From: a virus
Lineage: Duplodnaviria; Heunggongvirae; Uroviricota; Caudoviricetes
Length of the DNA: 43,585 nt
Virus record (IMG/VR): IMGVR_UViG_2529292909_000016
Location: 1-43,585 of that record
Strand: one strand, 5' to 3'
How positions within the stretch are numbered: position 1 is the first letter of the stretch; every line of letters begins with the position of its first letter. Positions 27,001-33,000 of the stretch are shown here, piece by piece. The position numbers are program-made.

Positions 27001-30000
27001 TATGAAGACTTAAATCCTTAACAAAATTATTCAGCCCGGATAGCTGAAGGTGAGCGAATCCAAGGGATACGGTACTATCACCAGATGCAGCATGTGCCTG
27101 TGCAGTTAATCCACCTAAGCCCAGAGTTGCGCACACAAGAAATTTTGTGATACTTTTCATTTTAAGAATCTTCCTATATTAAAAACATTGTTCTCTCTGT
27201 CCTTTCCACATTTTTGATTATTTACCATCCTGCCTGGAAATAAAAATAAAAATTTTTCTTAAAATGATTGATAAATTTTATTGTGCTAATCATACATTGA
27301 AGTATTAATAACAAGAACTTTGTCTACATAAGGCTTTCGAATATCCCATGTTGCACCACCTGAATAATGCTCACAGGAATATATTTTATTTCCTGTAGCG
27401 CCAGTGGATGTGGTATAAATCGGTCGGTCATAAGGAGTTCTTTTCCAGTTATAATACCCGACCAGTGCAGGCATAATTGCGCATGGATATCCAAGGTCCT
27501 TTTCAAATTTGATATCAACAGGTATTAACTTCGCGTCAAGCAGCATCATTTCGCCATGGTAAATCATCTCACCCAACGGATTATACATGGCGATACCATA
27601 CTCAGAAGGTTGAGTAACCATATTCGCAAAAGCATAAACAGTCGTAACACCAGGATTCGTTCCCCTGACAATTTGATGAAGCCTTAAGGCATGATATCCA
27701 TCAATCTGTTCATGCGTGTACATGACATCGGCCTTCTTCTCTGTTCTGATAAAGAAAAAACAACTTTTTCCTGACGGAATTGACGTTTTAAAAAAAGCCT
27801 TCTCAGTCGCCGGAATAGTTCCCTTATTGATAAGACACTGAGGCGTAAACCCCGGGCTTATCCACAAGCTGCCATCTGGTTTCGTAATGCTTAAACCATA
27901 CATACAACTCACCCCCAGAATGTATAAATATATGACCCCATCCCCTGCTCAAGATTTGACCACATCACCGTATTGCCATTAATGGTTATCTTCGGTACTT
28001 TCCGGTCCTTAAATACATTATTCCACGGAAATAATGAACAGACTGCCTGCAATGTTTTCCCTTCTGGTTTATTCGTATACGTTTTTGATCCCGACTCCGC
28101 CGTAAACCTGTCCAGGAAAAATATGGGAGTAAGCACGCCCGTAACATTAACATTATTTCTGTTGTATATTGCAAAACCATATTCTGCCAATGTCAGCCTC
28201 CGGCTCAGCTTAACCTGCCTATGCGAACAGCCAGGCGTCCGTTCTGGTCATAAACTTCAATTTTATCATTGCGGATCACCAGCCCCACATTCTGATTAGA
28301 GTAACGAATTGTCAGTTGCCCTTGTGACGTAACACTGAAAAGGCCTCCAATATTCAGGTTACCCTGAGAATCAACCTGAAAGTTTCCGTTTTGAATAACG
28401 GCACTCCGAATAACTGGCGAAGTGATACTTACCCCGGCTTTTACCTCATCCGCCACAACCTTCCGCGACACCAGTGTTTCAATCACCGCGTCATAAATCA
28501 TCGCTTTCGGGATCACTACCTTGCCACCTGATACCGCAAACGGATAGGCTGTGTTATCCGGATTATTCGGGTCAAAGACAAACAACTGCGACGCAGAAAT
28601 TGCAACCTGACTTACAGGCCTGCCTTCACTGTCTTTTCCGGCGACAATCCCGATCCCCGCAGTGATGCCATCAACTCCCGCTTTTTTTGACCACATCGCA
28701 AGGAAGGCCTCACCGCCTTCTTTATCCAGTTTAGTGATGCGCTTGTCGACCTCATTAAGCGATTCACTGGTTGACGAATCCAGTGTGGTTATGCGGGTTT
28801 CAATACCACCAATCGTTCTTGTCGTTTCCTCCCTGAGAGCCCCCACAACTTCGGTTGTCTTAATTGCCGCATCCTTTACAGCCTGCCCCTGCGCGTTTTT
28901 TATTTCCTTGCGAAGCTCTTCTATGACGGGAGACTTCGCCGCCTCTTCTTTTATCTGGTCAATCACCGCCTGAACTGATATCTGTGTCTGTGCTGCCACG
29001 CCTGCCACTGCGTGCCACGGCCCCTTCACTCCCGCTGCATTGACAAAGCGTATCCAGTAAAATCCCGACCAGCCCGGGTCAACCGGATCACCATAAACCT
29101 GCCCCGGTGTCGTGGCAACCAGCACAGCATCTGAAAGGTCGTCCTTCGTTCCCCGCCAGATTTCTGTCAGTGAATGCCCCCGATAATTGGCCACATCCCA
29201 TTCCAGAAGAACTGAACCAAATCCTCCGGTCGCCTTAAAATTCAGTGGTTTTGTGGGAAAATCAACAGCCATTAAGGTGCTGTCAATGTCAACTCCTGGA
29301 TTCAGTGCATATGAGGTACCCGCACCACCCTGTGTACGACGTCGGGCAAGTTTAAGGCCAACCAGCTCTTCACGGGTCACAAAAGCATGACGACCGTCGC
29401 CACGCTGCCCGGTGCCAATTTCCATATTTTCCACAACAGCGGATAAATCCTTCCCCGCCCGCCACGGTTTTTTGCTCATATCGGTAACTCCGACATCGAT
29501 GTACTCAGGGTTATTCGTTCCACCTGCCCAAATCCGGATACCATCACCTGCCAGTTTTGCCCGGTTGCTGCCGGAAGTCTCACCACACTTCCCTTAAACG
29601 TACCCGGCGCAAAATGAATAACAGGAACATCATCAGCCATAACGGTGATCCCCACCCGCTCAGGTGCTGGAGATTTCACCCTGATACAGGAAAAAGAGGT
29701 TCTTTCAGGCAATGAAAAAATTTTTGAATGCCACCTTATCGTGGACGGCAGAGAGCCCCCAGCAAGCACTGACATTTTGTCTCCTGTCACCACGCGCATC
29801 ATATCTTTTGCGAGATCAACCCATGCGCAGTCAAACGGTGTACTGAGATAGCGGATATCCATGTTCACCGGGCTGAAGACAAACACATCCTGCTTACCAT
29901 CAGGTTTCGTGTAACAGGCAATGTACTCACCACGCCATGAGTAAGCCACAATGGACGACGGATTAAACTGACTCTGCCACTGTTCTGGTGAAATGATTTT

Positions 30001-33000
30001 TCCGTTACCACGGCTGTACTGCCGCCTGCATCAACCGATACCAGGCCATTTGTTCCTGCATACAGCACGAATCCCTCCATCGCCACCATACTTCTTCGGC
30101 TCAGGCATGCCTGCATGGAAGGGATTTTGGAACCAGAAATTGTGGACGGTGATACCCCACTGAACAAATAAGGCTCCCCCTTTGTCGCCACCACCAGTGA
30201 CGTTCCCAGCGGACAGATAGCTACAATATCTTCTGCCGTCGTGTGACGATTCACTTCCGGCCATGCATACGGCAGATACGCTTCCGAAAACATCACTTCA
30301 TTACCGGCAAACCCGGCGGCAATACCGTTAGCCATCAGGCAAAGGCCTGTCATATTCTCTGGCGGCGGCAGGTAATCCCATGTTGCCAGGGAAGGCCCAA
30401 GGTTTTTCGCCGGTATTTTGTCCGTGTAACTGAGCACGGATGCATCCAGTTCAGCCACAAGTAAAAAATCCGCCTCCCCTCCACCTGATGCAGAGCGATA
30501 AATCCGGCGACGTTTAATACTGGCATTCTGCAATGGCACCGGAGCCAGCGTCAGTTGTACCGCAGTTCCCGGAGTACGGAGTGTTACCTCCAGAGACGCC
30601 GGACCTGGCGGACCTTCTTCACCATAATCTGAGACAAAGGTTTCCGTATAAAACCGGGTTTCATCATCATTCGGGTTATCGTCAGAAACATCACCGCCCT
30701 GCTGAACAGTACAGACAGGAGCTGTCGTCGGCGCGGGGATCCCAAGACGATACGATGATGTCGGGTGATTCCCGTCCCCTTTTGTGGCAATGGTCGCATC
30801 CGTCACTTTAGGAAAACGCCCGTCAGTGTAGTAAATACGCCCGTGGGGGTCCTGAGCGATCGGACTGCGGATCACATCCACCACATCCGGCCATGCAAAC
30901 CAAAAATCGTCATGGTAATGAAAAATTGTTTTTGGCTTAATTGTGAATGTTTTCTCAACCTCTGACATCTCGTGTTCAGGCGTGATCACGCCATAGCGAA
31001 AATGACAGTTTTCTGCCAGTACAGCAGAATTATCAGGAAGCATAGATGCAATAACGCCTGGCATCATCCCGCGCATAGTGGTTATATCGATATAAGGCAT
31101 GGTTATCTGGTATCCGAAAATTTGAATGGCAGACGAGGTGGAATAATTAATCCCGGCACAATTTCACGACGTCAACCCGTACAGGAGTCGCTCTTACCGC
31201 CCGTCCACATGCAGGGAATTCGCAATGTTCGGCGAAAATGGCATCGTAAATGAAGCATGTAATCGCGCACGGGAAAAATATGGATTTCCAAAAATCTGAA
31301 TATTCTCCGCCGTGCAAAAATGCGAACAACATCACTTCACTAATCAGCCTGATATGGCATACTTAGCACGCCAACTATGATAACAAACTAATACCCTAAA
31401 ACTCATTACATCGGGACTGGCCGTGGTCCCGTTTTTTTTATTCAGCCAGCAGGCCATCCGACAACATAACTGCGGATCGCCTTCAGGTCTGTCAGCGCCT
31501 CAACCTCGGCTTTCATCTGCAACTGCCGTGTATTAATCTCCACTCCCTTCGCAAACATCGCTAGCTCTGTCGCTTCACTCAGTGCCATCAATGATGCTGC
31601 CGTCATTGGCACATCATTATTATCAGCATCCGTCCGGAAAAATTTCTCTGGCAACTTAAAACAATATCCTATATATCCGGCGTCTCCGGTATGTAGAACG
31701 TGAAGTTTTTAAAATTATTCATTTACCATTTAACTAATTTTTAGATCCTGGGGTACTCCCGTCTTTTTCATTGCCTCCACGAAAGCGGAACTAACAGAAC
31801 CTGACCAGTAATACTGGAACCCACTAACAACGCCCTGATAAATCATGGTTTGTGTAGCACCACCTACGTTTACGGTGATGTTACCTGCTTTACCACCGGC
31901 TAAATAAACAGCAGCTGTCGGTGTAGAGTTCGTCAAAAAGTGAGAAAGTGTAACGACAGCCCCTACCAGCCTCCCTGATCCGCAGCTTGCGGCGTTTGTA
32001 ATTGTACCTTTACTTTTTCTTCTAAAGGCCAGTCAGCGCCAACTGCGCCCCAGTTATCAACCTTGTCAGAGGATTTCCATTTATAGTACTCAGTTGCAAT
32101 TTTACAGCCCATAGTTCGCCCAACCATTTGGCTCATCATAAAAGGTTTACTCAGTCCCAGTTTGGTTCCGGCGGCTCCCATCCACTGCTCACCTGTTTCG
32201 CTCTTAGCCGAAGAGCCTACCCATCCCGATGTTACCCCCATCTCATCTCCCCCTTCTGAATGCGTGGGGTGAGTGTCACCCCACAATTTAAATTCAGTAG
32301 AAACCAGAAACTACAACAGCTGTCGTTTACTTCTCCCGGAGTTCTTTAATCTCATGACGAAGTGTTTTAAAGCCCTCGACTAACAATGCAATTATGCCGT
32401 TGTAGTTAAGACGCAGACGTTTTTCACCAGATATAACGTCTGCGTCTTCAGTTACCAGTTCAGGCAATGCTTTTTGTGCATCCTGAGCAATTAAACCAAC
32501 CGACGTTTGCCAACCGTCGGCAGAGTACTGTATCTCGTAAAGATAACCAGTAAGTGCCTCCAGACGATCTAACGCATTATCCAGTTTTACCAGATTTCGC
32601 TTGTTGCGTTTATCCGAACGGATCTGAACATCGTTAAATGAGCCGTTTCCGGTCACCGTCAAATTGCCATTAATACCACCATTAAAAGTTTGTGCCTGAG
32701 TCCATGTATTGGCAGTAGTAAGCAGTTCTGTTCCTTGCCCGGGGGCTCCAGTGTCTCCCTTCGGTCCCTGTGGCCCCGCCGGACCTGCTGGTCCAGCCAC
32801 TCCCGGATCACCTTTATCGCCTTTCGACCCCGGCGCACCTGCCGGACCTGCTGGTCCAGCCACCCCCGGATCGCCTTTGTCACCTTTTGGCCCCTGTGCG
32901 CCTGCCGGGCCTGCTGGTCCAGCCACCCCCGGATCGCCTTTGTCACCTTTTGGCCCCTGTGCGCCTGCCGGGCCTGCGGCTCCCGTATCCCCTTTCGGTC

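Follow-up and report, generated by a model that had tools for sequence, protein, structure and literature searches.

The probable identity of a J-like region as the tail-tip module of a Sepvirinae prophage remnant, with a split nozzle gene and an intact needle gene

The tail tip of phi24B, a short-tailed Stx-type phage (Sepvirinae), has been described in a cryo-electron microscopy (cryo-EM) preprint. There the nozzle is a hexamer of gp57, which shares 29% identity (E 2.9e-53) with its counterpart in Ralstonia phage GP4; gp56 forms a trimeric central needle with an N-terminal domain in the nozzle lumen, a coiled coil at residues 167-260 and a C-terminal beta-prism; and gp61 is a collagen-like lateral fibre (bioRxiv 10.64898/2026.04.10.717836). 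In the related phage Sp5 the counterparts of nozzle and needle, ORF70 (ECs1232) and ORF71 (ECs1233, with a DUF1983/J domain), are both essential for tail formation (PMC5155283). Here we analyze a stretch of 43,585 nucleotides (nt) of caudoviral DNA (IMG/VR virus record IMGVR_UViG_2529292909_000016, positions 1 to 43,585; hereafter the window), in which a first-pass annotation had read the region 28205-31100 as a J-like host-specificity region of the lambda type, spread over three overlapping open reading frames (ORFs) and lacking a receptor-binding end. We instead identify this region, with high confidence, as the tail-tip module of a 933W/phi24B-type short-tailed prophage, in which the nozzle gene has been split by the loss of 1 nt, the needle gene is intact and the prophage itself is a remnant. 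The features that compose the core of this module are:

29476..31100, minus strand: nozzle gene with a -1 frameshift, homologue of phi24B gp57 and Sp5 ORF70 ECs1232; 1625 nt against 1626 nt when intact
29997..30001, minus strand: frameshift site, A5 on the coding strand (T5 on the plus strand), where a 99.8%-identical relative has 6
29865..31100, minus strand: 5' fragment ORF of 411 amino acids (aa), comprising 368 native nozzle residues and 43 out-of-frame residues
29476..29949, minus strand: 3' fragment ORF, 157 aa at its longest (128 aa from the ATG at 29862), comprising native nozzle residues 386-541
28205..29479, minus strand: intact central tail fibre (needle) gene, 424 aa, homologue of phi24B gp56 and Sp5 ORF71 ECs1233, with a J-like C-terminal 'tail tip' domain
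27909..28190, minus strand: 93-aa protein, homologue of phi24B gp55 (90.7% identity), a probable adaptor or immunoglobulin-like (Ig-like) tip protein
27286..27912, minus strand: 208-aa ORF (205 aa from the ATG at 27903), homologue of phi24B gp54, a probable receptor-binding protein at the needle tip

The three ORFs of the first-pass annotation are thus all present on the minus strand. Of the two overlaps that it reported, the one of 4 bp stands, and the one of 85 bp exists only if the 157-aa ORF begins at its first GTG (29949); the gene caller of the source record starts this second ORF at the ATG at 29862, directly after the stop of the 411-aa ORF and with no overlap. A megablast search with 27200-32400 recovered 188 phage records, all of them short-tailed Stx-type phages with identities of 80-95%. 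Shigella phage 75/02 Stx and Escherichia phage Lyz12581Vzw, both with complete genomes, have a single gene in place of the 411- and 157-aa ORFs; downstream of it come the gene of a 422-aa 'tail fiber protein', a pair of small genes and lom. The nearest relative that we found, a prophage of E. coli NMBU-W12E19 (NZ_CP042892.1), is 99.83% identical across window positions 25917-34607, and at this locus the Prokaryotic Genome Annotation Pipeline (PGAP) calls one 541-aa gene (WP_001146315.1) that shares 4 bp with the gene of a 424-aa 'phage tail tip fiber protein'. The first-pass annotation had named separate intact genes in complete phages as the observation that would tell against fragmentation; such genes do exist, although as two intact genes rather than three. 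Hence, based on the identities of both genes and on their full-length relatives, we interpret the locus as a broken nozzle gene followed by an intact needle gene and not as a fragmented J.

Compared with three references (the two complete phages and the 99.83%-identical prophage), the nozzle gene shows a single 1-nt gap, which falls in the T5 run at 29997-30001 where the nearest relative has T6. Restoration of one base yields a 541-aa protein that matches WP_001146315.1 at 100% identity and residues 27-567 of phi24B gp57 at 95% (compared via record HM208303). The earlier suspicion of a frameshift behind the 411/157-aa pair is therefore borne out, as a 1-nt deletion relative to every intact relative, but its proposed location within 29865-29949 is not, the indel lying about 50 nt upstream of that overlap zone. 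As the frame changes after codon 368, the window copy, which lacks the unbroken frame of about 541-567 codons, is a pseudogene or carries a sequencing error and is not a functional nozzle member. Neither the 411-aa nor the 157-aa ORF matches a Pfam family, and the repaired 541-aa protein has no likeness to lambda J (best BLASTP E 0.099), in keeping with what had been noted for this upstream part. In tblastn searches the intact nozzle protein aligned as a single unbroken piece in 39 of 40 sampled rows, the exception being PA52, which is interrupted by an insertion sequence, and in 363 of the 367 matching phage records, among them phages of Vibrio, Ralstonia, Burkholderia and Rhizobium, at least 80% of the query aligns in one place; RefSeq and PGAP also show one annotated gene at the nozzle position. 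Residues 4-477 of the intact protein match PDB 8jov_A (577 aa, 6 chains), a hexamer labelled 'virion-associated phage protein', with an E-value of 2.3e-54. This entry is probably the Ralstonia phage GP4 structure, to which the E-value and hexamer count correspond; a full-text search for the code 8JOV found no paper. The nozzle gene lies directly upstream of the needle gene, the two sharing an ATGA (4-bp overlap at 29476-29479) that is also found in NZ_CP042892.1. With regard to its start, RefSeq phage records begin the gene 66-75 nt upstream of a conserved ATG (giving 563-567 aa), which in the window lies at 31100. Since what precedes this ATG bears no relation from one phage to the next, it is probably here that the gene truly starts, which gives 541 aa.

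The 424-aa ORF is, judged from its sequence, a complete stand-alone needle gene. Pfam PF09327 (Phage_Tail_Tip) covers its aa 258-335 (E 1.9e-11; score 44.3 bits, cutoff 22), and its aa 72-391 hit PHROG 31, 'central tail fiber J' (E 1.5e-24), with a further match to PHROG 496, while BLASTP aligns its aa 253-391 to lambda J 853-984 (E 3e-4). It is accordingly the only J-like ORF of the three, as had been stated from the outset; the Fn3 homology that had been ascribed to it found no counterpart, there being no Pfam match to that domain at E <= 0.1. The protein is 93.6% identical to phi24B gp56 over residues 1-423, differs by one amino acid from that of the nearest intact prophage (NZ_CP042892.1), and is full length in 185 phage records. 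Beyond the Sepvirinae, its residues 78-423 align with residues 28-427 of gp56 of the N4-like Pseudomonas phage DEV (429 aa; PDB 9ze4_N) with E 4.3e-13, and it matches the orthologue in Litunavirus MAG4 with E 5e-18. The J alignment ends at residue 984 of 1132, so that the last 148 residues of J have no partner, and just 33 residues of the ORF remain beyond that point. The ORF therefore has no receptor-binding domain of the lambda type, as the first reading had it. The lack of tube, tape-measure and tip-assembly genes is equally real, but it is no sign of recombination or truncation: the window prophage is collinear with short-tailed Sepvirinae phages, in the annotated late regions of which neither tube nor tape-measure genes appear, and because the phage is of the podovirus type the absence of these genes, like that of the receptor-binding end, is the norm of the family.

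If the needle has no receptor-binding domain of its own, this function could be supplied in trans by the two small proteins encoded downstream. The 93-aa protein is identical to the copy in NZ_CP042892.1, and the 208-aa ORF is 96.1% identical to phi24B gp54. In tv24B the spike is without the Ig-like domain of J, and two downstream proteins are predicted to supply it, with AlphaFold-Multimer predictions that agree with a placement of the small proteins on the needle tip (Matusiak et al., PMC12309495). In phi24B extra density is seen at the needle tip and gp54 is present in the virion proteome (bioRxiv 10.64898/2026.04.10.717836). In DEV, genetics and cryo-EM support gp56-gp55-gp54 as the receptor-binding fibre, of which gp54 binds the essential protein LptD (PMC12892993), and the 208-aa ORF is the second small ORF after the fibre gene, just as DEV gp54 is. 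The operon of Litunavirus MAG4 has the same layout, its fibre gene and the two small genes after it encoding 429, 99 and 223 aa, as against 424, 93 and 208 aa in the window, so that the 93-aa gene corresponds in position to gp55 of DEV and MAG4. These four lines, namely the prediction of Matusiak et al., the tip density and proteome of phi24B, the DEV fibre and the MAG4 layout, support the model in trans, and in their light we infer that gp54/gp55 form a receptor-binding unit with BamA as its target. Moreover, the 208-aa protein shows fold similarity to a solved stand-alone receptor-binding protein, which binds LptD, and this fold match lends independent structural support to the published BamA proposal, in which a small needle-mounted protein, and not the lateral fibre, binds the receptor.

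Several observations weigh against this assignment. A receptor-binding role of the 93- and 208-aa proteins is so far a proposal for every Stx phage, and the literature on BamA binding by these phages consists of predictions and low-resolution density. BLASTP detects no sequence similarity between the two proteins and gp55 and gp54 of DEV and MAG4; hhalign with the MAG4 small proteins aligns only a 25-column N-terminal motif at a probability of 1.3%; and Foldseek against the PDB returned nothing significant. Searches of PDB sequences with the 93- and 208-aa proteins likewise gave no match, and Foldseek against BFVD retrieved uncharacterised phage proteins of 200-250 aa only.

The 93-aa and 205-aa proteins and their Litunavirus counterparts all begin with a similar N-terminal hairpin of the form M-x-Y-G-[FLIM]-x-[IFL]-x-[ND] (window 28148-28190 and 27862-27903; Litunavirus locus L008 4703-4745 and 4999-5041), of which a second copy occurs inside the larger proteins (the 205-aa protein and its Litunavirus counterpart). 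The needle C-termini show a similar strand pair, ..IEVYDQNGRLAVRIG.. and ..IKVFDQAGKLRVHIG... The hairpin may be a docking motif, a suggestion drawn from sequence patterns for which the hhalign probability just given provides no statistical support. The 93-aa form of the smaller protein starts at a TTG at 28190 with a GGAGG 7 nt upstream, and the PGAP call in NZ_CP042892.1 agrees with it. This form keeps the conserved Y-G motif found at the start of the Litunavirus homologue, and the annotated phi24B gp55 (75 aa; positions 43877-44104 of locus L007) is probably short at its N-terminus.

Starting from the observed gene identities, frameshift position, intactness of the needle gene and deletions, we propose, largely by analogy with the phi24B preprint, how such a module would work. 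In an intact phage the tail tube would be closed by a hexamer of the 541-aa nozzle protein, and the N-terminal domain of the needle trimer would plug the nozzle lumen, to be followed by the coiled coil and the J-like beta-prism. The tip of this prism, which has no receptor-binding domain of its own, would carry the 93-aa and ~205-aa proteins, and the ~205-aa protein is proposed to bind BamA in the outer membrane. The proposal further holds that receptor binding frees the needle and opens the nozzle for ejection. In the present record, where the genes for the needle and the two tip proteins are intact, the module would be inert cargo of a cryptic remnant. Three further genes flank the core of the module:

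26423..27160, minus strand: Lom/Ail outer-membrane protein gene, the end of the module (Pfam PF06316, E 7.6e-30)
32327..34366, minus strand: lateral tail fibre gene with collagen-like repeats, homologue of phi24B gp61 (Pfam Collagen, Phage_fiber_2, Peptidase_S74)
31730..32241, minus strand: Gp38-like adhesin gene, frameshifted (Pfam Gp38_N); 170 aa when intact in NZ_CP042892.1

The lateral fibre protein is identical to the copy in the NZ_CP042892.1 prophage. By contrast with that prophage and phi24B, the window prophage lacks stx, the tRNA genes and everything between Q and bet, as well as the large terminase, most of the portal, the scaffold, the capsid and both adaptor genes. The giant LPD5/LPD1/MuF_C/LPD38 ejection-protein gene (18977-24810, minus strand; 2784 aa in the relative) has suffered a 2326-nt out-of-frame deletion with its junction at 24113-24115, which leaves ORFs of 279 and 1706 aa, and the neighbouring 421-aa gene is truncated at 25917. 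Through a 4.4-kb deletion the C-terminal portion of the portal now abuts the end of the second adaptor gene (34363-35238, minus strand; junctions 34599-34607 and ~34970), creating a fusion ORF with Pfam matches to P22_portal and SU10_adaptor that occurs in no other assembly of the collection; at the second junction the portal runs directly into the small-terminase region. Within 40856-41706 there are neither stx nor phage tRNA genes, and the segment downstream of Q lies ~320 bp from the nanS-p esterase gene (38821-40731). Since a Q fragment directly adjoins bet/exo (41823-43285), the immunity and replication region is gone. The remnant is inserted in ynfG, the 5' part of which follows ynfF at the left (~15960-16300), with the integrase and the Fer4-containing rest of ynfG situated just past the right end of the window (positions 1-1320 of locus L011). 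A second block of integrase, excisionase and exonuclease genes lies together with an IS600 copy at window 1-5689, beside rspB. The IS600 copy at the left end of the window has, at position 443, one base fewer (ACAACC-TCCC) than the copy in E. coli AST198, a 1-nt indel outside a homopolymer. The prophage is thus a genuine deleted remnant, and to this extent the first-pass annotation was right to speak of one; the term fails when applied to the three ORFs as pieces of a single J-type gene.

We next consider the nature of the lost base. We lean towards the 1-nt loss in the nozzle gene being a real mutation. An appreciable share of our credence, though short of half, goes to a sequencing or assembly artefact, according to which the nozzle of the strain is intact (A6) and the homopolymer was under-called, with the run at 32014-32018 in the gp38-like gene and the intergenic run at 27242-27246 affected likewise. 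Across the 8.7-kb block shared with the 99.83% relative there are three 1-nt deletions against 11 substitutions, and all three, in the nozzle gene (29997-30001), in the gp38-like gene (32014-32018, T5 against T6) and in the intergenic A run (27242-27246), are contractions of an A/T run from 6 to 5; the fourth indel of the block is a 1-nt insertion at 34603. That every one of these deletions is a 6-to-5 homopolymer contraction is a pattern typical of sequencing error and counts against a real mutation, as does the occurrence of the 411-aa product on only one contig of the whole collection, AIFY01000034.1, from the whole-genome shotgun draft GCA_000249655.2. This pattern suits homopolymer under-calling in a draft assembly, and equally neutral slippage in a dead prophage, given that homopolymers are also a natural hotspot of real slippage and that multiple kb-scale deletions show the prophage to be free of selection. 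Further, the neighbouring host genes (~10 kb, with 14 runs of at least six) show neither a homopolymer indel nor a broken ORF, a contrast that is weak evidence against an artefact as the numbers are small and Fisher's test (0/14 versus 3/17) is not significant. The deletion junctions of the remnant are found in none of 5,426 complete E. coli genomes, and the 411-aa product and the portal::adaptor fusion product were each found on the source contig only; as no other assembly of the collection carries the remnant, there is no independent copy for comparison. A literature search found no statement of the sequencing platform of the source assembly.

We consider it extremely unlikely that programmed recoding rescues the gene, in which case a -1 slip of tRNA-Lys on GAA-AAA-T would restore the native ..E-K-I-I.. 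and some full-length nozzle would still be made. The candidate stretch reads GGAAAAATC, and a slip from AAA to the overlapping AAA, followed by ATC, would indeed give the intact protein when the sequence is read directly. However, all intact relatives encode the nozzle in one frame; the slip site forms no canonical X-XXY-YYZ heptamer; the run itself reads GGAAAAGATT or GGAACAGATT in other Stx phages, and as it differs among relatives there is no conserved slippery site; and with the capsid genes absent no function would follow from recoding. The weakest explanation, which we reject, is that recombination and truncation left a lambda-type J host-specificity gene in three fragments: it can appeal to the J 'tail tip' domain of the 424-aa ORF and to the remnant state of the prophage, but the upstream protein, encoded by the 411/157-aa pair, has no J similarity and is homologous over its length to a podovirus nozzle, the 424-aa gene is complete and separate, its length and both its ends being shared by 185 complete phages and by the solved DEV gp56, and the whole locus is collinear with intact Sepvirinae phages.

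Returning to the preferred reading of a Sepvirinae tail-tip module in a dead prophage, the needle, gp55, gp54 and Lom genes are all intact, each at most 2 amino acids from its counterpart in a functional prophage. One might speculate that selection preserves this block, for instance as a donor of a receptor-binding module to incoming Stx phages, that a -1 slip might supply the nozzle, and that the hairpin common to gp55 and gp54 of Sepvirinae and Litunavirus is a general docking signal on J-like fibres; we give this very little credence. The finding is an ordinary one that published work already explains, and its significance beyond annotation is little. In practical terms, lambda is an unsuitable template for J-like 'tail tip' matches in E. 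coli prophages if the phage is a Sepvirinae podovirus, in which a nozzle gene precedes the J-like gene and the latter encodes a short but complete needle. The corrected annotation would carry the split nozzle as one pseudogene, or have it re-sequenced, next to one intact needle gene.

A comparison with the known systems places the locus accordingly. Lambda is a siphovirus with tube and tape-measure genes. The needle shares with lambda J the C-terminal 'tail tip' beta-prism region (J 853-984), but in the 1132-aa J a single chain also holds an N-terminal tip hub of ~800 residues and a C-terminal LamB-binding domain (~985-1132), neither of which is present in the needle. The GP4-type portal-tail complex has a nozzle homologous to that of the window, although at only ~29% identity, and differs in its set of fibres. 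The stand-alone receptor-binding proteins of small siphophages (Oekolampad RBP, Rtp44; PDB 9RPT; PMC12685063) stand apart at 11% identity, and the phages that carry them have siphovirus tails and use LptD as receptor, as against the short tails and the proposed BamA receptor of the Stx phages. DEV, like the window, has a stand-alone J-like trimeric fibre followed by small genes, of ~99 and ~223 aa, and its receptor, LptD, is an essential outer-membrane beta-barrel, the place of which would be taken by BamA in phi24B; its fibre, however, is attached laterally to a separate tail plug, whereas the phi24B needle plugs the nozzle axially. The closest systems remain phi24B, 933W and Sp5, with which the window shares the gene order and the 4-bp overlap of nozzle and needle, and from phi24B it differs in the nozzle gene split by a 1-nt deletion and in its setting, a prophage without head, terminase, stx and regulatory genes.

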